Of a DNA stretch of 64,000 nucleotides, positions 39,732 through 49,807 are shown piece by piece. The stretch comes from Candidatus Binataceae bacterium (lineage in GTDB: Bacteria > Desulfobacterota > Binatia > Binatales > Binataceae): the NCBI GenBank assembly GCA_963798375.1, contig CAWCTG010000007.1:7851-71850 (forward strand). The letters are read 5' to 3'. The notes beneath the pieces were generated by a model. It made no database searches. It was not told where the DNA came from and was given only the letters and a program-made list of their open reading frames with translations. The translations under genes were made by a program, and so were the position numbers. Every line of letters begins with the position of its first letter. Positions within the stretch are counted from its first letter, which is position 1.

Positions 39732-39816
39732 CGCCGGTTAGATGATTTCAAAAGCGTCGCGCGACGGCGACGGTGGCGAGCCGGTAGCGCGCGGCGCTGT
39801 TATAGCGAGTGCTTCA

Positions 39817-39846
39817 GGGGCGGTTATCGAACCGCCCCTCTTTCTT
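39817..39846 (+). terminator. rho-independent terminator after gltA
   Basis: GGGGCGGTT-atcga-AACCGCCCC followed by TCTTTCTT. Confidence 0.6.
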
Positions 39847-40198
39847 GGACGTAGGGCATCCGTTCAGATTGTGCGGCCGGTTAAGTGTCAGCCACCGCGC
39901 CGTCGTTTTTGATTTCAATAGCTTCGTACGCCATCGCAGATCGCCTCCCGGAATCGACGGGCAGCTCGCAGGATTTTGAAGTGCGGCGCTGAGTTATTTT
40001 GCCCGTCTCTCGCTAACCATAACGCAATCTGATGCATCTTCGGCAAGATTCTCAACCTGTGATGGGCGGGAATCGTCAGTATTGACTTCTGAGTGACACG
40101 GTTAGAGGCTGCATTGTGGGCTTTTGTGCGACATCGAGCGATATGGCTCGCTTAAAAGGGAATTGATATATCTCCCCGAGGGGAGGCTTGGCGTTACG

Positions 40199-40432
40199 AT
40201 GGCATCCTCGGAAGAAATTCTGACCATCACTGAGTTGTCGGAGCATCTTCGCGTCCATCCGACTACGATTTACCGCTTGCTGCGCGAAGGACGAATACCG
40301 GGCTTCCGCGTCGGCAGCGCGTGGCGATTCAGCCGCGCGGCGATCGAAATATGGGAGCACGGGCCAGCAGGGCAAATCGACGAAAAACCCTTGCCCGCGC
40401 GCAAATCCAAAGGCCGCAAGGCGCGAAAGTAG
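40199..40432 (+). CDS. excisionase-family helix-turn-helix DNA-binding protein (paralogue of 15628)
   Basis: LTITELSEHLRVHPTTIYRLLREGRIPGFRVGSAWRF. GGGGAGG Shine-Dalgarno. Basic C-terminal tail. Confidence 0.7.
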   Translation: MASSEEILTITELSEHLRVHPTTIYRLLREGRIPGFRVGSAWRFSRAAIEIWEHGPAGQIDEKPLPARKSKGRKARK

Positions 40433-40533
40433 CCGGCAAACCATTCTCCGCGCGCCTGCTTTTCTGTCATCCTCAGCGAAGTCGAGCGGTCATGCTCCAC
40501 TCGGACTGACAGAAGGAAAAAGGACGGCGCGAC

Positions 40534-41343
40534 GTGGACTCCAGCGAAAACGCAAGCTTGGGAAATCGCAGACCTTCTCCGGTAGCCGAGTACTTCGGCC
40601 GCTTAGCCGCCACTTATGGCGATGGCGAGTACTACGGGAATCGGCGCCGCGCCGTGCTCGAGACGATCGCGGAGGAAATCGCGGATGCGCGCGACGTGCT
40701 CGACGTCGGATGCGGCAATGGCACCTATCTCGCGAAGTTTGCGGCGGCGCCCGGAAATCGCCGGGTGACCGGCGCCGACTTGTCAATCGACATGCTGCTG
40801 TCCGCGCGCAATCGAGTCGGCGTGAAATGCCGGCTGCTCTGCGCGGACGTGTCACGACTGCCGTTCAAGCCGGCGTCGTTCGATTTAATTTTCGCCAGCC
40901 ACGTGCTTCAGTTCGTCGCGGATCTCGATGGCGTCGTGGCGGAGATCGCGCGATGCGTGCGGCCCGGCGGCGTGTTGGTGGCAACAGGCAGGCGGGAGGA
41001 CAGTGTTCGCCAGATGCTGAGCGCGATCGTCGGTCCGGACCGATGGCGCGAATATCGCGAGGTGATTTTCCAGCGCGCGCCCCGGCGCGAGGCAGCTGCC
41101 GGTCCCGATGATCGCTACCAGCGGGCGTTCGCCAAGTCCGGTCTGCGTGTCGAGGAACGCGCGGCGCCATTTACGATCCAGTGGGTGGATATCGAAGAGT
41201 GGATCAGGATCAGATGGATGCCTGTGATACCGGAGGGCGAGCGCCAACAGGCCGACGCGATGCTGGCGGAAGTCGCCAAAGCGGGCGCGTCGCGGAGCTT
41301 GACGCTGCACGAACCGCTGATCCTTGGGATGCGGGATGTATGA
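40534..41343 (+). CDS. class I SAM-dependent methyltransferase
   Basis: VLDVGCGNGTY (motif I) and ...FDLIFASHVLQFV (motif II/III). Confidence 0.75.
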   Translation: MDSSENASLGNRRPSPVAEYFGRLAATYGDGEYYGNRRRAVLETIAEEIADARDVLDVGCGNGTYLAKFAAAPGNRRVTGADLSIDMLLSARNRVGVKCRLLCADVSRLPFKPASFDLIFASHVLQFVADLDGVVAEIARCVRPGGVLVATGRREDSVRQMLSAIVGPDRWREYREVIFQRAPRREAAAGPDDRYQRAFAKSGLRVEERAAPFTIQWVDIEEWIRIRWMPVIPEGERQQADAMLAEVAKAGASRSLTLHEPLILGMRDV

Positions 41344-41400
41344 GTCTGGCGCCGTTTGACAAGTGCGCGGTCAACCTAATAGCTAACGCACTTAAAGCAA

Positions 41401-42237
41401 ATGGCGGAGAGTTTCGCGCCGATGCCAACGAAATACACCGACGTAAAAAGATACGCGACCTACTACTTCTATCGCGGCGCTACGACGCTGCCCGACGTGG
41501 TGCCGGACTTTTCACGCGGCCGCAAGATCGTGTTCGTTCACGGCGCCGGCTCCAACGGTCACACTTGGCATCGCCAGATCGACGCGTTCGGCGGTCGGCA
41601 CAGTCCGATCGCGCTCGATCTGCCCGGCCATGGACGCTCGGCGGGCGTCGAGGGACTGCGCACGGTTCAGGACTATGCCGACTTCGTTGCGGCTTTTCTT
41701 GACATGTTGAAGATCAAGGCGGCGGTGATACTGGGGCATTCGATGGGCGGCGCGATTGCGATGGACCTGGCACTTCGGCACCCCGCGCGTGTCGAGGCGT
41801 TGATCCTCAGTTGTACGGCGCCGAAGTTCAACATCGCGGCCGATCGAATCGAGGCACTACGGGCAATCACGATGGGCCGGGCGCCGCAGGCCTTCAACAC
41901 TGACGGCTACTCGCCCCGGACGCTGAAGGAAAACTTCGACGTCGTCCGCGAAGGCTGGATGGAACAAATCAAGACCGATCCGCGCGTGCGCTACACCGAC
42001 ATCGTCGCGTGCTCGCAGCTCGATTTGCGCGACGCGATCGGAAAGATCGACAAACCGGCGCTGGTGATTGCCGGCGCCGACGACCAGGGCACCACGCCGG
42101 CCGACGCGGCGTTTATCGCGGGGATGATTCGCGGCGCAACCTGCAAGATTGTCGCCGACGCCGGTCACTATATCCCGCGCGAGCGTCCCGCCGAGTACAA
42201 CGCCGCGATCGAACAGTTCGTCGGCGAACTGAAGTAG
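41401..42237 (+). CDS. alpha/beta-fold hydrolase
   Basis: IVFVHGAGSNGHTW, nucleophile elbow GHSMGG, and C-terminal Asp/His. Confidence 0.8.
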   Translation: MAESFAPMPTKYTDVKRYATYYFYRGATTLPDVVPDFSRGRKIVFVHGAGSNGHTWHRQIDAFGGRHSPIALDLPGHGRSAGVEGLRTVQDYADFVAAFLDMLKIKAAVILGHSMGGAIAMDLALRHPARVEALILSCTAPKFNIAADRIEALRAITMGRAPQAFNTDGYSPRTLKENFDVVREGWMEQIKTDPRVRYTDIVACSQLDLRDAIGKIDKPALVIAGADDQGTTPADAAFIAGMIRGATCKIVADAGHYIPRERPAEYNAAIEQFVGELK

Positions 42238-42246
42238 GAATTCGCG

Positions 42247-43410
42247 ATGAGTTTAAGCCGCAAAACCGCAGTGGCCGGCGTGTATGAGCATCCTACCCGC
42301 TTCGCGCCGGACAAAAGTCTGTTTCAGATAATGGCGGAGAGCGTGCGTGGCGCGCTGGACGACGCCGGGTTGACGATCAAGGACGTGAACGGGCTGTGCA
42401 CGACCGGAATCGGGATGAGCGGGATGGGAATCGTCGGCTTCTGCGATTACCTGAACCTGACGCCGAACTTTGTCGACTCGACTTCGATCGGCGGGTCGTC
42501 GTTTGTGGCGCACACCGCGCACGCGGCGGCCGCTATCCACGCCGGGCTGTGCGACGTATGCGTGGTGGCGTATGGCTCTACCGCGGCCTCGTCGCGGTTT
42601 GCGATTGGCACCGGCGGAGACCGCGGCGGCGCAGGCGATCCGTGCGACCAGTACGAGATTCCGTTCGGGCCGACTACCGTCGGGGCGTACGCGATGATCG
42701 CGCAGCGCCATATGCATGACTACGGGACGACCTCCGAGCAGCTGGCCGAAATAGCGGTCACGATGCGCCTGCATGCGTCCATGAATCCGGCCGCCAAGTA
42801 CCGCGACCCGATCACGGTGGAAGACGTGCTCGCGTCGCGAATCATCTCGTCGCCGCTGCATCTGCTGGATTGCTGCATCATCAGCGACGGCGGCGGCGCG
42901 TTGGTGATAACGTCGGCGGAGCGCGCGCGCGATTTGAAGAAAAAGCCGGTTTACATTCTCGGCGCGGGCGAGACGGTGCGGCACGCGGCGCGCGGGCAGC
43001 GCGATTTTCTGGAAATCGCGGCGGCGCAATCGGGACGGCTGGCGTTCGAGCGCGCCGGCGTCGCGCACAAGGACATCGACATGGCGATGATCTACGACTC
43101 GTTCACGATCACCGTGCTGGCCACGCTGGAGAATCTCGGCTTTTGCAAGCGCGGCGAAGGCGGGGCGTTCGTGTCGGGCGGACGGCTGCGCTTCGACGGC
43201 GAATTTCCGATCAACACCGACGGCGGAGGGTTGTCGTCGAATCATCCGGGGATGCGCGGAATCTTCCTGGTGATCGAGGCGGCCAGACAACTGCGCGGCG
43301 AATGCGGTCCGCGGCAGGTAAAGGATTGCAAAATCGCACTCGCGCACGGCACCGGCGGCACGCTCGGCACGCGCCATTCGGGCGCGACGCTTATCCTCAG
43401 CAATCAGTAA
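42247..43410 (+). CDS. thiolase-like protein (SCP-x/Ltp2-type, probable aldolase/thiolase partner of DUF35)
   Basis: Thiolase fold motifs (…NTDGGGLS…, …GHP.G.TG…). It is immediately followed by a DUF35 gene, as in Ltp2-DUF35 retro-aldolase pairs. Confidence 0.8.
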   Translation: MSLSRKTAVAGVYEHPTRFAPDKSLFQIMAESVRGALDDAGLTIKDVNGLCTTGIGMSGMGIVGFCDYLNLTPNFVDSTSIGGSSFVAHTAHAAAAIHAGLCDVCVVAYGSTAASSRFAIGTGGDRGGAGDPCDQYEIPFGPTTVGAYAMIAQRHMHDYGTTSEQLAEIAVTMRLHASMNPAAKYRDPITVEDVLASRIISSPLHLLDCCIISDGGGALVITSAERARDLKKKPVYILGAGETVRHAARGQRDFLEIAAAQSGRLAFERAGVAHKDIDMAMIYDSFTITVLATLENLGFCKRGEGGAFVSGGRLRFDGEFPINTDGGGLSSNHPGMRGIFLVIEAARQLRGECGPRQVKDCKIALAHGTGGTLGTRHSGATLILSNQ

Positions 43411-43432
43411 CCTCGGGGACGGACCAGGAATC

Positions 43433-43861
43433 ATGGCGGAACAGACGCAAGCGAAGAAATACTCCAAGCCACTCCCGCATCTCGACGAAGAGAACCGTCC
43501 GTGGTGGGAGGCGCTGCAACGGCACGAACTTTACATCCAGAAATGCGGAAGTTGCGGCGACCTCCGCTACTATCCGCGCACGCTGTGCACGAATTGCATG
43601 TCGTCGCAGGTGCAATGGATAAAATGCAGCGGGCGCGGCAAGCTCTATACCTTCACCACGACGTATCAGAACCAGGCGCCGGGCTTTCGCGAATCGCTAC
43701 CGTACATCATGGCGTACGTCGAGCTGGAGGAGGGCGTGAAAATGCTCACCAACCTTGTCGACTGCCAGCCGGAACAGGCTAAAATAGGGATGCCCGTCGA
43801 GGTCGTATTCGACGACGTCACGCCCGCGGTGACGCTCGCGAAATTTCGCCCGGCGAGGTGA
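43433..43861 (+). CDS. Zn-ribbon/OB-fold DUF35 family protein
   Basis: CGSCGDLRYYPRTLCTNC rubredoxin-like Zn ribbon followed by an OB fold. Confidence 0.8.
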   Translation: MAEQTQAKKYSKPLPHLDEENRPWWEALQRHELYIQKCGSCGDLRYYPRTLCTNCMSSQVQWIKCSGRGKLYTFTTTYQNQAPGFRESLPYIMAYVELEEGVKMLTNLVDCQPEQAKIGMPVEVVFDDVTPAVTLAKFRPAR

Positions 43862-43874
43862 GGGCTCAATCCTG

Positions 43875-44558
43875 GTGAGTACAATCCTTGATCTCCACTC
43901 GCATAGCGAAGCATCGGAAGACAGCCGCGCACCGGTAGAGGCGTACCTCAACTGGATCAAGCTGCGCCAGGCCGAGCGGCCGGTCGATGGAATCGTGCTG
44001 ACCGAGCATCGCCAGTTCAATCGCGACGCCGACTACCGACACCTCGAGGACAAATTCGGAACGCTGGTGTTGCGCGCGTCGGAAGTCGAGACCACCTACG
44101 GACACATGCTGGTGTTCGGGGTGAACGATGACATGGTGGCGCGCTTCGATTTTGCCGACGTGCGGCTCGACGCGCAGACTTTGATCGATGAAGTGGCGCG
44201 GATGGGCGGAATTGTCGTGCCGTGCCATCCCGGCCGCCCCAATATCGGGCTCTACGAGCACTATCAGTCGCGGCCGCCGCTGGAGAACGTGGTCGCGGTC
44301 GAAGCGCTCAACGGCGGCTCGCGCAAGGGCGAGGACGAGCGTAGCGCGGAATTGATCGCGAAATACGGTTTTGCCGCGACCGGCGGTTCCGACAGCCATC
44401 TGGTGAGCCTGATCGGGCTGTGCGCGACAAAATTCAGCGCGTACATCAGGACGATCGACGACCTGGTGCGGGAATTGAAGACCGGCAACTACCAGCCGGT
44501 GGACTACCGGCCGCGGCGCAAAACCGTGCCGCATGCGGTCGCGATGGAAACCAGGTAA
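43875..44558 (+). CDS. PHP (polymerase/histidinol phosphatase) domain metal-dependent phosphoesterase
   Basis: LDLHSHS...TEH...CHPGRP...GGSDSH motifs. Confidence 0.7.
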   Translation: MSTILDLHSHSEASEDSRAPVEAYLNWIKLRQAERPVDGIVLTEHRQFNRDADYRHLEDKFGTLVLRASEVETTYGHMLVFGVNDDMVARFDFADVRLDAQTLIDEVARMGGIVVPCHPGRPNIGLYEHYQSRPPLENVVAVEALNGGSRKGEDERSAELIAKYGFAATGGSDSHLVSLIGLCATKFSAYIRTIDDLVRELKTGNYQPVDYRPRRKTVPHAVAMETR

Positions 44559-44605
44559 TGCGCCGCAACGGCGATAGCGAGACAACGAAAAACGAGAAAA
44601 CTACG

Positions 44606-45052
44606 ATGGCAGTGAATTACGATCCGGCGCTGATCAACAAGGTCTTCGAAATCACCGAGCCGGTTGAGGTCAAGGCCGAGAAGATAAAGCGCTACTGCGC
44701 GGCGCTCGGCGAGACCAATCCGATATACACGGACGAGGAGGCGGCGAAAAAAGGCCCGTACGGAGAGATCGTGGCGCCGCCGTCGTTCGCGGTGACGTTC
44801 CGCAACGGGCGGCATTTCTTCGAGAACGTTCCGCGCTTCGGAATGCGCGGCTTTGACGCCGGCAAGGATGTCGAGTTCGTCGCGCCGATCAGGCCGGGCG
44901 ACCAGATAACGCTCAGCTCGCACGTGAAGGAAATCTACGAGAAAACGGGACGGACGGGCACGATGGTGTTCGTCGTAATCCGCTCGACGCTGAAGAACCA
45001 GAACGAAGAAGTGCTGGCCCATATCGACCATCGCTTCATGAACCGCCCCTGA
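44606..45052 (+). CDS. MaoC-like (hotdog-fold) dehydratase, N-terminal-type subunit (start ambiguous: 44558 or 44606)
   Basis: Hotdog fold. Paired with the next MaoC gene, like ChsH1/ChsH2-type hydratase heterodimers. Confidence 0.65.
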   Translation: MAVNYDPALINKVFEITEPVEVKAEKIKRYCAALGETNPIYTDEEAAKKGPYGEIVAPPSFAVTFRNGRHFFENVPRFGMRGFDAGKDVEFVAPIRPGDQITLSSHVKEIYEKTGRTGTMVFVVIRSTLKNQNEEVLAHIDHRFMNRP

Positions 45053-45081
45053 GCGCATCGGGATCGGGAAATCGAAATCAG

Positions 45082-45501
45082 GTGAACAGTTTCGAAGAGA
45101 TCAATATCGGCGACACGCTCGGCCCGCTCGAGCTGTTCGTGAGCAAGGATCAATGCCGCGCCTACGCCAGGACGATGGGCATGGGCGAGGGCGCGGGACG
45201 CTTCACCGACGATGAAGCCGCCAGGAAGGAAGGGCTGCCCGGGATGATCATCCCGGGCAACATGAGCCTCGGACTGCTCTCGAAGCTGGTGACGGATTGG
45301 ATCGGCTCGAGCAGCGCGTGGCTGACGCGGATGAGCACGACCTATCGGGTGCCGGTGCAACCCGATCACACGGTAACGATTCACGGCTTTATCACGAACA
45401 AGAATCCCGAAAATCGCACGGCCGAGATCGACGTCTGGATGGAGAACGAGGAGTCGGAGCGCCTTGTCACCGGGACGGCGACCGTCGAGTTCAGAAAGTA
45501 G
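45082..45501 (+). CDS. MaoC family (R)-specific enoyl-CoA hydratase-like protein
   Basis: GTG start. ...GLPGMIIPGNMSLGLLSKLVTDW... is typical of MaoC dehydratase. Confidence 0.75.
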   Translation: MNSFEEINIGDTLGPLELFVSKDQCRAYARTMGMGEGAGRFTDDEAARKEGLPGMIIPGNMSLGLLSKLVTDWIGSSSAWLTRMSTTYRVPVQPDHTVTIHGFITNKNPENRTAEIDVWMENEESERLVTGTATVEFRK

Positions 45502-46772: not shown

Positions 46773-47324
46773 CTAGACCAGGATGGAGCCGCGGAACGGC
46801 TCGTCGCGCGGGGGAGGGAACTGGAGCAGGTTGATGGCCCATTTGCGCGCCTGGCGCAGCGCGTCCTCAGCGCGGCGGAAGATTCGCTCGCGATACATCA
46901 CGGACCATACGTACGCATCCACCGACGGCTCCTCGCCGAGCGTGATGTCGAGCATCCAGTCCTCGAGCTGCGGGCCGCAAATCAGCAGGCGCACCACGCG
47001 CCCGTGATCGATTACGATGCCGCGCGCCTCGCGTGGGATGCGAAACTCGTCCTTGACGCGCTTGACGACATTGGGCGGCGCATGCTGCTCGGTCATCGCC
47101 ACGTAGGCCCAATCGCCCTGCGGAGGATTGGCCTCGCGCGCGATGCGCAGGTTGTTGTCGGTCAGGTCTTCCTTGGCGCGATCCTGATCGTAGTCGTGCG
47201 CGACTTGGTAAAAGGCCATCGCGACCGGCAACTGCGGCATCTCAGTTTCGGACTTGGCCCTTTTGGGTTTCTTGAAGCTGGTCTCGACCCACCAGCGGTT
47301 TTCGACGTTGGGCTTTTGCGGCAT
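46773..47324 (-). CDS. hypothetical protein (183 aa), translationally coupled to the upstream SprT-like gene
   Basis: ATG overlaps the stop of the upstream gene by 1 nt. Basic N-terminus. No recognisable family. Confidence 0.5.
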   Translation of the reverse strand: MPQKPNVENRWWVETSFKKPKRAKSETEMPQLPVAMAFYQVAHDYDQDRAKEDLTDNNLRIAREANPPQGDWAYVAMTEQHAPPNVVKRVKDEFRIPREARGIVIDHGRVVRLLICGPQLEDWMLDITLGEEPSVDAYVWSVMYRERIFRRAEDALRQARKWAINLLQFPPPRDEPFRGSILV

Positions 47325-47860
47325 CAGGCGACCCGGCGGGATTTGCGGGCGTCGCTTCGCGCAGAGCGCCTTGATTTTCGTGCGATCGAAATACGCAGGC
47401 GACGCTTGCGGACGCGATTTGCAGCGCGACGCGTGCTCGAGATTCCAACCCGGGTGCGCGAGCGCGATGCACCACGGCGGCCGGGGACTTTAAGCCCGGT
47501 CACCATCCGGCGCGAGAACAGGTCGGCCTTGCGCTCGGCGTCGGACCAGAACAGGAAGTGACCCATCTCGTGGTAGATCATTTGAATCCACCGGCGCTCG
47601 CTGAAATAGACGCGTCCGCGTTTCCAGTTTTCGGGATGCACGAGATGGATGCGGCCGTCTTCGTAGGTGCGGCCGGCGGTCTTGCCCCAATCGATGTACT
47701 CGAACCATTCGATACGCGGGCGGCGCAGTTTGAAGTATCGGCACATCGAGGAAATGGCGCGGTTGAAATGCGCGGCCCGATGGCCGCGGAAAAATTCGGC
47801 GAGGTTGCGATCGATTTCGCGGCGATGAGCGACAGGAGGAACAATCATTCGCACTAGCAA
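47324..47860 (-). CDS. SprT-like (Wss1/Spartan-related) HExxH zinc metalloprotease-domain protein with highly basic C-terminal tail
   Basis: ...IDWGKTAGRTYEDGRIHLV...MIYHEMGHFLFW resembles the SprT-like family. The C-terminal ~60 aa is Arg/Lys-rich. Confidence 0.55.
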   Translation of the reverse strand: MLVRMIVPPVAHRREIDRNLAEFFRGHRAAHFNRAISSMCRYFKLRRPRIEWFEYIDWGKTAGRTYEDGRIHLVHPENWKRGRVYFSERRWIQMIYHEMGHFLFWSDAERKADLFSRRMVTGLKVPGRRGASRSRTRVGISSTRRAANRVRKRRLRISIARKSRRSARSDARKSRRVA

Positions 47861-49360: not shown

Positions 49361-49807
49361 CTAGCGGGCGGGATTAGCGCTGTGCATCCTATGCGGATTG
49401 CGCCGGCGCGCCCGATTAACCGTCAAGCGTTGGATCCGGCTCGCTTCCTTGAGCCGCAGGCGCAGCGGACCGCCGCCGCGGCCGGCGACCAGTTCGGACA
49501 GCCGCCATCGCAAGCCCCGGGCATCCATGCCGAGCGCGTCGCACACGTTGTCAAATGACAACGGTGAAGTGACGCCCTTGGTGAAGATCCAGTTCCAAGC
49601 CTCGTTAAACGAGTTGCGTTTGCGCAGGCTGGTTGACCCGCTGAATTCCTGCACGATGTTGATCGCATCGGCCAGCACCGCCAGCATCAGTCGCTGCTCG
49701 CTGGAGAATGATCGCGCGCCGACCATCTCGAAGAACTGGCTGCGAAGGATAACGTCGGGAAACGGACGCGGATCGACGGCAGCGATTGTGGAGACAACGG
49801 TACTCAT
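49361..49807 (-). CDS. hypothetical protein, possible C-terminal DNA-binding region
   Basis: 148-aa ORF. The C-terminal ...SFDNVCDALGMDARGLRWRLSEL is HTH-like. No confident family. Confidence 0.45.
   Translation of the reverse strand: MSTVVSTIAAVDPRPFPDVILRSQFFEMVGARSFSSEQRLMLAVLADAINIVQEFSGSTSLRKRNSFNEAWNWIFTKGVTSPLSFDNVCDALGMDARGLRWRLSELVAGRGGGPLRLRLKEASRIQRLTVNRARRRNPHRMHSANPAR

Follow-up and report, generated by a model that had tools for sequence, protein, structure and literature searches.

The operon studied here comes from a soil bacterium of the Binatia, an uncultured class in which it is strongly conserved, and lies within a 64 kb stretch of DNA that was analysed as a whole (the window). 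All eight co-directional open reading frames on the + strand were found, and profile matches bore out for each of them the domain family named in the first-pass annotation. The locus comprises:

39816-39839, + strand: terminator-like hairpin (10 bp stem with 7 G-C pairs, T-rich tail)
40199-40432, + strand: HTH_17/excisionase-type DNA-binding protein, 77 aa (Pfam HTH_17 9e-16, TIGR01764 8e-14)
40534-41343, + strand: class I SAM-dependent methyltransferase, 269 aa (Methyltransf_11/25 6e-24)
41401-42237, + strand: α/β-fold serine hydrolase (Abhydrolase_1/6 3e-29)
42247-43410, + strand: thiolase-fold protein without catalytic cysteines, 387 aa (Thiolase_C_1 2e-56, NF006010 462.5 bits)
43433-43861, + strand: DUF35 protein, 142 aa (zf-ChsH2 2e-11, OB_ChsH2_C 8e-25)
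43875-44558, + strand: compact PHP-family metalloenzyme (PHP_C), 227 aa
44609-45052, + strand: hot-dog protein 1, HadA / MaoC N-terminal type, 147 aa (FAS1_DH_region, PF13452, 1.6e-27)
45082-45501, + strand: hot-dog protein 2, HadB type, 139 aa (MaoC_dehydratas, PF01575, 6e-7)

The intergenic gaps measure, from 5′ to 3′, 101, 57, 9, 22, 13, 50 and 29 nt, where the second is 78 nt if the α/β-hydrolase starts at 41422 (M8), the conserved and probably the true start. An earlier description of gaps of 10-60 nt or overlaps was therefore slightly off, as the gaps are mostly short but span 9-101 nt and no genes overlap. The strong hairpin at 39816-39839 divides the operon from a citrate synthase gene upstream; it ends that upstream unit and therefore marks the 5′ boundary of the locus, and the gene immediately downstream of the operon is convergent. 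A tblastn search across the whole 64 kb window revealed no acyl-CoA dehydrogenase (ACAD), AMP-ligase or crotonase, in line with the initial remark that dehydrogenase and ligase genes are missing nearby. Neither a 3-hydroxyacyl-CoA dehydrogenase gene nor a ChsE-type ACAD or other steroid gene is present in the window.

The gene arrangement is far from chance: in 65 of 69 Binatia loci, counted at the species level, the six 3′ genes (α/β-hydrolase, thiolase-like, DUF35, PHP, hot-dog 1 and hot-dog 2) stand in this order, invariably with the α/β-hydrolase at the head of the block. The two 5′ genes are variable. A homologue of the HTH gene, a possible regulator that is annotated in relatives as an 81-aa gene, is found upstream in 40 of 68 loci, while the methyltransferase occurs in 23 of 68 (41-81% identity) and is missing from the other 45, with a sulfatase taking its position in loci L002-L005. 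Thus, the conservation of gene order that had been proposed as a check was found for a unit of six genes and not for the full eight, and the methyltransferase is lineage-specific variable cargo outside the conserved core. As the methyltransferase is swapped for a sulfatase in some relatives, and neither it nor the HTH gene is a conserved part, the suggestion of a methyl-esterified substrate is without comparative support.

The first-pass annotation had proposed examining the catalytic cysteine of the thiolase-like protein, and this cysteine is indeed missing. Gly83 occupies the nucleophile position, aligning with Gly89 of CtSal and falling in the GGG stretch of Ltp2, and the surrounding IGGSS segment is well conserved in an alignment of 72 sequences (at least 97% of them have G82, G83 and S85, and at least 80% have I81 and S84). 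The catalytic tyrosine base of retro-aldolases sits in a Y-D-x-F/Y motif (PMC12329534), and the corresponding motif here is Y283-D-S285-F, where Ltp2 has YDHF, Sal has YDCY and the SCP2 thiolases have HDCF; Tyr283 is kept, and Ser285 replaces the acid/base cysteine of HDCF. With Gly83 at the nucleophile position and Y283-D-S-F in place of HDCF, the protein therefore cannot be a thiolase, and the SCP2-type assignment was rejected. It resembles in sequence the Ltp2/Sal retro-aldolases, though neither of their second catalytic residues is retained: His333, within NHPGM, aligns with Tyr344 of Ltp2, and Ser285 aligns with Cys304 of Sal, a residue whose change to serine (C304S) abolished CtSal activity (PMC12329534). 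We therefore regard it as a predicted CoA-ester aldol/retro-aldol lyase. Over 71 Binatia species its median identity is 88% and 42% of positions are invariant, among them YDSFTITV and also NTDGGGLSSNHP.

The neighbouring DUF35 protein combines a Cys4 zinc ribbon (C38, C41, C52, C55) with an OB fold, and its best PDB matches are aldolase-binding DUF35 domains, the one that partners Sal (Shy-DUF35, 9myr_B, 9e-31) and the one that partners Ltp2 (ChsH2-DUF35, 6ok1_B, 5e-25). We predict a structural role for it as partner of the thiolase-like protein, in agreement with the pairing originally suggested.

Among solved structures, the thiolase-like protein is closest to 4u4e (6e-115), an uncharacterised 'thiolase' of Sphaerobacter thermophilus that shares the YDSF and HPGM motifs, the glycine at the nucleophile site and a DUF35 gene directly downstream. 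The 4u4e cluster differs from the Binatia locus in having no PHP–hot-dog trio. It encodes SDRs, two ACADs and a canonical MaoC hydratase (GDHQYIH), together with a Metallophos phosphoesterase and an acyl-CoA synthetase of the ADP-forming type. The second-best solved homologue is CtSal (9myr, 4e-65), which with CtShy forms the proteobacterial bile-acid C5 side-chain aldolase–hydratase (PMC12329534, PMC11321319); the nucleophile-site glycine and the tyrosine base are shared, whereas the essential Cys304 is serine here, and Shy, a MaoC homomer, carries both an Asp/His dyad and a fused DUF35 domain. TcLtp2 (6ok1, 3e-54), which with ChsH2(DUF35) and ChsH1/ChsH2 makes up the actinobacterial steroid C3 side-chain hydratase–aldolase, likewise has no nucleophilic cysteine and keeps the YDxF tyrosine; its partner, too, combines a Cys4 zinc ribbon with an OB fold, and a hot-dog protein of two subunits is encoded next to it. 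In contrast to Ltp2, with His296 and the catalytic acid Tyr344, our protein has Ser285 and His333, and its DUF35 partner is a separate protein rather than the C-terminus of a hydratase subunit; the Binatia locus also differs in its integral PHP enzyme.

Both hot-dog proteins match MaoC hot-dog fold families by Pfam profiles, so this part of the earlier label 'two MaoC hydratases' holds, but their identity as hydratases does not, as the MaoC Asp/His dyad is missing from both in a comparison of about 140 sequences. In hot-dog 1, G-E33-T-N-P-I-Y38 stands for G-D-x-N-P-x-H (alignments to 5i7n and HadA), with D…F at the dyad positions in locus L088, and the family invariants include KTGRxGxMxF. In hot-dog 2, R40-F41 lies at the position of the catalytic His41 of HadB, invariant in 136 sequences (alignments to 4rlj_B and 5zy8_B). 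The best named family matches are to HadAB/HadBC, the mycobacterial FAS-II (3R)-hydroxyacyl-ACP dehydratases, which likewise consist of two single hot-dog proteins, one HadA-like and one HadB-like; unlike HadB, with its catalytic Asp36/His41, hot-dog 2 has a non-conserved position and the invariant Phe41. We therefore rejected a MaoC/hydratase-2 (R)-specific enoyl-CoA hydratase. Nor does the pair mirror ChsH1/ChsH2 as had been thought, as one subunit of ChsH1/ChsH2 has Asp/His, in contrast to E33/Y38 and Phe41 here.

In the PHP protein all nine canonical metal-ligand positions are filled (H8, H10, D16, H45, E70, H77, H118, D173 and H175); these are invariant or nearly so among family sequences, R121 is invariant, and the predicted structure model bears out the PHP fold. 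All specific NCBIfam models score below their cut-offs (NF038032, 69.6 vs 80; NF041577, 26.6 vs 400). The nearest relatives by sequence are nucleotide phosphoesterases and the nearest structure is an oxidase. The best profile matches are TrpH/YciV-type enzymes (RNase AM and the 3′,5′-bisphosphate nucleotidase Cv1693), which have the same metal ligands and HPGR motif, but are of about 290 aa, carry an insertion domain, act on nucleotide or RNA substrates and have no hot-dog association. To our knowledge, no PHP enzyme is a hydratase. The protein may be a hydrolase, a water-activating partner or a PsfC-like oxidase.

Of 56 unrelated metagenome loci, 55 had the same three genes in the order PHP, hot-dog 1, hot-dog 2, and in about 100 protein clusters of Dehalococcoidia/Chloroflexota PHP and hot-dog 1 are fused, with hot-dog 2 next each time. 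The PHP protein, which the first-pass annotation described as lying between the aldolase and hydratase genes, is not an insertion there: it belongs obligatorily with the hot-dog pair and is in some cases fused to it. An AF2 model of a natural fusion (pTM 0.61) joined the two parts by some 13 disordered linker residues and did not demonstrate a fixed PHP–hot-dog interface. Three unrelated kinds of C–C enzymes adjoin the trio: the thiolase-like/DUF35 pair, an HpaI-type aldolase (L091, L109), and a split TPP enzyme resembling sulfopyruvate/phosphonopyruvate decarboxylase (L089, L098, L102). CoA-ester-type neighbours recur, namely family III CoA-transferases and, in 17 loci, a tandem methylmalonyl-CoA-epimerase-like protein, but some neighbours (HpaI, ComDE-like enzymes) use free 2-oxo acids and not CoA esters. 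The PHP–hot-dog unit is older and wider-ranging than its association with the thiolase, and as it is also found without an adjacent aldolase (L025, L070 and Dehalococcoidia), the two modules may share a pathway without direct coupling. An uncharacterised trio thus recurs across phyla, and in Binatia it is joined to a cysteine-less aldolase-like enzyme.

The order of the genes and how well it is conserved, the fusion and the residue patterns are all observed; from them we infer the enzymatic activities and the substrate, and tentatively favour a two-module CoA-ester aldol/retro-aldol system that is neither β-oxidation nor demonstrably steroid-related. In module A, the thiolase-fold protein, which has lost both catalytic cysteines and kept the Ltp2/Sal tyrosine, would act with the free-standing DUF35 protein to make or break a C–C bond on a CoA thioester by aldol chemistry, interconverting a 3-hydroxyacyl-CoA with an aldehyde or ketone plus acetyl- or propionyl-CoA. 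In module B, the HadA/HadB-like hot-dog heterodimer would bind the acyl-CoA, and the PHP protein, with its complete metal site, would provide the chemistry, in our preferred reading by activating water at the metal for a hydration, dehydration or hydrolysis step, so that the substrate of the aldolase is prepared or removed. The two modules would parallel the hydratase–aldolase pairs ChsH1/H2–Ltp2 and Shy–Sal, and the α/β-hydrolase may start or finish the route by hydrolysing an ester or thioester. A (di)carboxylic acyl-CoA, small or branched, is the probable substrate, rather than a steroid.

The PHP protein could instead be a true phosphoesterase, acting on a phosphorylated acyl substrate or on the 3′-phospho-ADP part of (acyl-)CoA, with the hot-dog pair as an acyl-CoA-binding adaptor. 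The nine ligands of a trinuclear site, including D16, which is absent from PsfC, and the HPGR motif with its TrpH-type matches are in its favour, as is the phosphoesterase of a different fold (Metallophos) in the Sphaerobacter cluster, though this is one case only. The substrate may be phosphorylated, as the first reading of the locus had proposed. Characterised phosphoesterases, however, are less than 20% identical to the PHP protein, the conserved block includes no kinase or other phosphate-handling gene, and dephosphorylating CoA at every turnover would be wasteful, so that we consider this role unlikely. Another candidate function is that of a PsfC-like non-haem di-iron oxidase that would oxidatively decarboxylate a tertiary 2-hydroxy acid; the aldolase might supply one as a CoA ester of citramalyl or malyl type. 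PsfC (7rty), the di-iron PHP-fold oxidative decarboxylase of fosfomycin biosynthesis, shares only 18% identity with our protein, has lysine in place of the third-metal ligand D16, and is solitary in its phosphonate cluster, with no hot-dog partners; PepM or Pmm synthase is missing from the Binatia locus. The PsfC-type dinuclear site and the phosphonate context being absent, membership of that family was rejected, and a PsfC-like activity seems to us improbable.

The remaining alternatives concern the locus as a whole. A ChsH1/ChsH2–Ltp2-type hydratase and retro-aldolase for steroid or branched acyl-CoA side chains, with PHP, methyltransferase and hydrolase adapting it to a phosphorylated or methyl-esterified substrate, agrees with the cysteine-less thiolase-like protein that retains its tyrosine, with the closeness of the DUF35 protein to those of Shy and ChsH2, and with the heteromeric hot-dog pair. 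It predicts poorly the loss from both hot-dog subunits of the dyad of ChsH1, Shy and HadB, the sporadic methyltransferase and the occurrence of the trio in lineages and contexts without an aldolase, and the steroid link claimed earlier finds no steroid gene context in the window. Moreover, the class-wide identity of the thiolase-like protein is similar to that of citrate synthase (medians of 88% vs 81%, the latter from 21 loci only), an unusual level of conservation for an enzyme of niche catabolism. We judge this explanation to be quite unlikely, if slightly less so than the PsfC-like one. By domain families alone, ordinary fatty-acid β-oxidation or PHA metabolism would fit, the locus then supplying (R)-hydratases, a thiolase and a hydrolase of depolymerase type, and the α/β-hydrolase does weakly match scl-PHA depolymerase models. 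Yet every family match of the hydrolase is below cut-off, the nucleophilic cysteine is glycine and the acid/base cysteine serine, the hot-dog pair is without the hydratase dyad, and the accompanying ACAD, 3-hydroxyacyl-CoA dehydrogenase and ligase genes are missing from the window. This makes it highly improbable, and upholds the original view that the operon does not serve classical β-oxidation.

Two known systems were considered for the HTH, methyltransferase and hydrolase genes and rejected. One was the BioC/BioH methyl-ester masking of pimelate synthesis: matches of the methyltransferase to BioC and UbiE models are far below cut-offs (BioC, 68 bits vs 185 and 342), the hydrolase scores 85 vs 207 for BioH, and most Binatia loci do without the methyltransferase. 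The other was the MADS anti-phage system. The HTH protein matches mad1 at 9e-11, but the mad2 match (4e-18) covers only the methyltransferase domain (profile positions 258-410 of 492), NF047737 scores 55 vs a cut-off of 80, and there are no further mad genes near the locus. For the α/β-hydrolase, the PcaD model gives 149 bits (cut-off 256), and MenH, like BioH, is below cut-off. Its predicted triad consists of Ser114 (GHSMGG), an acid within G225-A-D-D228 and His256, and its nearest solved structures are esterases.

The region 40199-45501 holds eight open reading frames running in one direction, and window annotation together with a domain search confirmed the co-directional set of domain families named in the first-pass annotation. 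In order, the products are an HTH_17/excisionase-type protein, a class I SAM methyltransferase, an α/β-hydrolase, a Cys-less thiolase-fold protein (Thiolase_C_1; here "thiolase-like"), a DUF35 protein (zf-ChsH2 and OB_ChsH2_C), a PHP-family protein (PHP_C) and two hot-dog proteins (FAS1_DH_region/MaoC). The gaps between them are, 5′ to 3′, 101, 57 (or 78), 9, 22, 13, 50 and 29 nt, and the next gene 3′ of the operon, encoding an FtsX/MacB-type permease, is convergent.

39816-39839, terminator-like hairpin closing the citrate synthase gene upstream of the operon
40199-41343 (+), HTH and methyltransferase genes
42247-43410 (+), thiolase-like gene
43433-43861 (+), DUF35 gene
43875-44558 (+), PHP gene
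44609-45052 (+), hot-dog 1 gene
45082-45501 (+), hot-dog 2 gene

Conservation of the operon was examined by scanning one genome per GTDB species with the PHP alignment A2 (the wider alignment A1, too diverse for pattern design, was not used), which confirmed PHP relatives in at least 575 stretches. The best 80 of these all belong to Binatia, with PHP identities of 65-96%, and the close relatives of the PHP protein carry the names Candidatus Binataceae or Binatus. When the window proteins were mapped on these best 80 loci, 69 had sufficient flanking sequence, and 65 of those keep the order and strand of α/β-hydrolase, thiolase-like, DUF35, PHP, hot-dog 1 and hot-dog 2. Of the four exceptions, L041 and L072 contain an insertion separating DUF35 from PHP, and L025 and L070 are missing the upstream half of the block. 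As the HTH gene lies upstream in 40/68 loci and the methyltransferase gene is found in 23/68, the conserved unit comprises six genes and not the eight initially taken as an operon, the HTH and methyltransferase genes being peripheral. Four loci (L002-L005) have a sulfatase where the window has the methyltransferase. The most constrained member is the thiolase-like protein: across 71 species its median identity is 88%, and 42% of its positions are invariant. For comparison, the median for citrate synthase, based on only the 21 loci that still have it next to the operon, is 81%. An identical thiolase-like protein is encoded on an ENA soil contig. Binatia-type operons with PHP identities of 66-69% also occur in five MAGs in public databases (L071, L073, L074, L082, L083) whose titles name "uncultured Enterobacteriaceae" or "Klebsiella pneumoniae", taxonomic labels that are probably wrong.

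Key positions of the thiolase-like protein were assigned using the motif definitions in PMC12329534 and alignments to the nearest solved structures: 4u4e, an uncharacterised "thiolase" of Sphaerobacter thermophilus (6e-115), the bile-acid aldolase CtSal (9myr, 4e-65) and the steroid aldolase TcLtp2 (6ok1, 3e-54). The nucleophile position of thiolases is occupied by Gly83 (Gly89 in CtSal), and the acid/base motif is Y283-D-S-F, the equivalent being HDCF in SCP2 thiolases, YDCF in SLP, YDCY in Sal and YDHF in Ltp2 (PMC12329534). With Gly83, the YDSF motif and no catalytic Cys, thiolysis is impossible for this protein, and the locus is aldolase-like, as the first-pass annotation supposed. Like both characterised aldolases, Ltp2 and Sal, it keeps the Tyr serving as base; unlike them, it has neither enzyme's second catalytic residue, and His333 (in NHPGM) aligns with the Ltp2 catalytic acid Tyr344 and with Sal Gln352. 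The substitution C304S, equivalent to the Ser found here, inactivated CtSal (PMC12329534). The YDSF and HPGM motifs are common to 4u4e, and so the two proteins represent a distinct, uncharacterised clade, whose Tyr-Asp-Ser-Phe plus His active site differs from those of both characterised steroid aldolases. A crystal structure for proteins of the 4u4e type dates from 2014, but no reaction has been assigned to them, and our literature search on 4U4E found nothing. The DUF35 partner has a Cys4 ribbon (C38, C41, C52, C55) and is nearest to the domains that bind Sal (9e-31) and Ltp2 (5e-25). An ordinary thiolase of β-oxidation is ruled out by the active-site residues and by the lack of ACAD, ligase and ECH genes anywhere in the 64-kb window, which upholds the initial view that this is not classical β-oxidation.

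The 4u4e gene itself lies within a β-oxidation-like cluster of S. thermophilus (L172; CP001823.1, 602653-621804), in the order ACAD, ACAD, MaoC, ADP-forming acyl-CoA synthetase, Metallophos phosphoesterase, SDR, DinB, SDR, thiolase-like, DUF35. The MaoC protein there is canonical (GDHQYIH), and the Metallophos protein is a second, unrelated phosphoesterase fold near the thiolase-like clade.

The two hot-dog proteins, HadA-like (hot-dog 1) and HadB-like (hot-dog 2), had been taken as MaoC hydratases mirroring ChsH1/ChsH2. However, the HadB catalytic Asp36 and His41 align in hot-dog 2 with a non-conserved position and Phe41, respectively, and R40-F41 is shared without exception by 136 sequences representing three lineages. 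The corresponding motif of hot-dog 1 is G-E-T-N-P-I-Y, where Glu and Tyr replace Asp and His (Asp and Phe in one relative). While ChsH1/ChsH2, HadAB and Shy have the dyad in at least one subunit, here it is found in neither. The name "MaoC hydratases" is therefore unjustified by the residues, and the pair is not a ChsH-type hydratase system.

Contexts of the PHP gene beyond Binatia were drawn from representative proteins and from a metagenome scan, not from the best 80 genome-scan loci. One representative (P0125) is a fusion of PHP and hot-dog 1, and, used as a query, it brought up about 100 fusion clusters from Dehalococcoidia/Chloroflexota, some of them marine. In three fusion contexts hot-dog 2 follows, with no thiolase or DUF35 gene near, and in two of these a family III CoA-transferase is close by. 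In L089 a PHP 50% identical to ours has a split TPP enzyme before it and the two hot-dog genes after it, and in L091 a PHP 42% identical follows an HpcH/HpaI aldolase; P0123, P0124 and P0135 led either to contigs of short length or to a subfamily of PHP that lacks hot-dog genes. The trio of PHP and two hot-dog genes was matched in at least 538 metagenome stretches, of which 80 further loci were listed, many of them marine and with PHP 52-73% identical to that of L089. Among these listed loci, hot-dog 1 follows PHP in 64 of the 65 with at least 400 nt downstream, and both hot-dog genes follow it in 55 of the 56 with at least 1 kb downstream. Their recurring neighbours include a tandem methylmalonyl-CoA-epimerase-like VOC protein (17 loci), an SDR (about 16), family III CoA-transferases, D-2-hydroxyacid dehydrogenases, a sulfopyruvate/phosphonopyruvate-decarboxylase-like TPP pair and an HpaI-like aldolase. 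The fusion and the fixed order of PHP, hot-dog 1 and hot-dog 2 make the trio an invariant unit, and the Binatia operon is this trio joined to the α/β-hydrolase, thiolase-like and DUF35 genes. PHP, first described as lying between aldolase and hydratase genes, thus belongs to the core and is not an accessory. Our literature search found no paper linking a PHP domain with MaoC proteins. A rigid interface between PHP and hot-dog 1 was not adopted: the AF2 model of the natural fusion has a disordered linker between two domains that are each well folded, and its pTM of 0.61 is uninformative, giving no evidence for a fixed interface.

The PHP family is narrow, with only 28 representatives (50% identity level) below 1e-30, and its nine canonical metal-ligand positions and R121 are invariant or nearly so.

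Structural matches of the PHP protein, with match scores
Rank 1: PsfC (7rty), 18% identity; 18.4
Rank 2: TM0559; 17.5
Ranks 3-4: EndoQ and 3e38; 16.4
Ranks 5-6: TrpH-type enzymes (3o0f, RNase AM); 14.5 and 12.8

Two rival roles may be considered for the PHP centre. By sequence profile, TrpH-type nucleotide phosphoesterases are the solved proteins closest to it, with the HPGR motif in common, and this would fit a phosphoesterase whose target is a phosphorylated substrate or the 3′-phospho-ADP moiety of CoA. The top structural match would fit a PsfC-like oxidative decarboxylase: PsfC is described in PMC12871164 (citing Simon et al. 2021) as a dinuclear non-haem-iron enzyme converting 2-phosphonomethylmalate to 3-oxo-4-phosphonobutanoate, so that hydrolysis is not the only chemistry of the PHP fold. 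However, PsfC has a Lys at the third-metal ligand position, where the window family has the conserved D16. Because the best structural match is this phosphonate enzyme, the phosphonate/sulfonate-type genes adjoining the trio in three loci are noteworthy: a PEP-mutase/ICL-family protein (L088:9644-10447, minus strand) and split sulfopyruvate/phosphonopyruvate-decarboxylase-like subunits (L089:6873-8004, L098:4726-5829).

The locus is a variant of the hydratase–aldolase/DUF35 theme containing a widely distributed, uncharacterised PHP–hot-dog module; of the original Ltp2-type C–C lyase reading, the aldolase-like part stands, and the ChsH-type hydratases and the membership of the methyltransferase and HTH genes do not. 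With somewhat less than even confidence, we propose that thiolase-like/DUF35 would catalyse an aldol or retro-aldol reaction on a CoA thioester, that the hot-dog pair would bind the substrate of an adjacent step carried out by the PHP metals, and that the α/β-hydrolase would hydrolyse an ester or thioester. The chief argument for a hydratase–aldolase-like logic is that the trio is paired with three C–C enzymes unrelated to one another, all of which make or use an aldehyde or a 2-oxo/β-hydroxy compound; for CoA esters it is the CoA-transferase and epimerase-like neighbours. Reliance on the ethylmalonyl-CoA pathway has been reported for most Binatota orders (PMC8262859), which makes small branched dicarboxyl-CoA esters attractive, if speculative, candidates. 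A bolder and more doubtful proposal is that the trio is a previously unrecognised enzyme type, in which a dyad-less hot-dog heterodimer would present a substrate, probably an acyl-CoA, to the PHP metal centre for hydration/dehydration, hydrolysis or oxidative decarboxylation; it would have been recruited repeatedly beside an Ltp2-like aldolase, an HpaI-type aldolase and a ComDE-like TPP decarboxylase, and in Binatia would serve a core carbon pathway rather than niche catabolism. The locus thus bears on two enzyme families without assigned function, the 4u4e-type proteins and the PHP–hot-dog trio. The carbon metabolism of Binatia and SAR202-like Chloroflexota, uncultured lineages that abound in soil and ocean, is inferred almost wholly from annotation, and an operon as conserved as citrate synthase with unassigned chemistry is a real gap in their metabolic reconstructions.

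Other readings were set aside. Methyl-ester masking in the style of BioC/BioH was prompted by weak matches to both proteins, but their scores are far under the cut-offs and the methyltransferase is not conserved. A MADS defence system was considered for 40199-41343, where the HTH matches PADLOC mad1 (9e-11) and the methyltransferase matches the mad2 methyltransferase domain (4e-18; NF047737 under cut-off); no other mad genes lie nearby, so these domain-level matches probably reflect generic similarity. PHA metabolism had weak depolymerase matches and nothing more. As for menaquinone (DHNA-CoA), the window methyltransferase and hydrolase weakly match MenG and MenH, and in one Dehalococcoidia locus (L086, SHYQ01000001.1) menD-menH-menB-menA-menC-menE is followed by a PHP~hot-dog fusion, hot-dog 2 and a third hot-dog gene; the link was not adopted because this arrangement was seen in that single locus.

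ARAGORN called an 89-nt tRNA-Gln(CTG) at 42978-43066 (+), within the thiolase-like coding sequence, which is almost certainly a false positive as no tRNA reached the Rfam gathering threshold; Rfam reported no RNA family anywhere in the window. Upstream of the operon, 39862-39934 (minus strand) shows in tblastn a pair of short matches, one 14 aa long (79%) and the other 11 aa long (91%), to a crotonase gene that stands between citrate synthase and HTH in L002-L005, and by this similarity looks like a remnant of a lost PDZ–hydrolase–ECH segment. On the 3′ side, one Binataceae genome has three tandem FtsX/MacB-type permease genes (L028:13364-16679) versus one in the window. Three minus-strand ORFs of 148-183 aa without a Pfam match (46773-47324, 47324-47860 and 49361-49807) have genes called at matching positions in relatives, between the FtsX-type permease, a CoA-transferase of family III and ispG.
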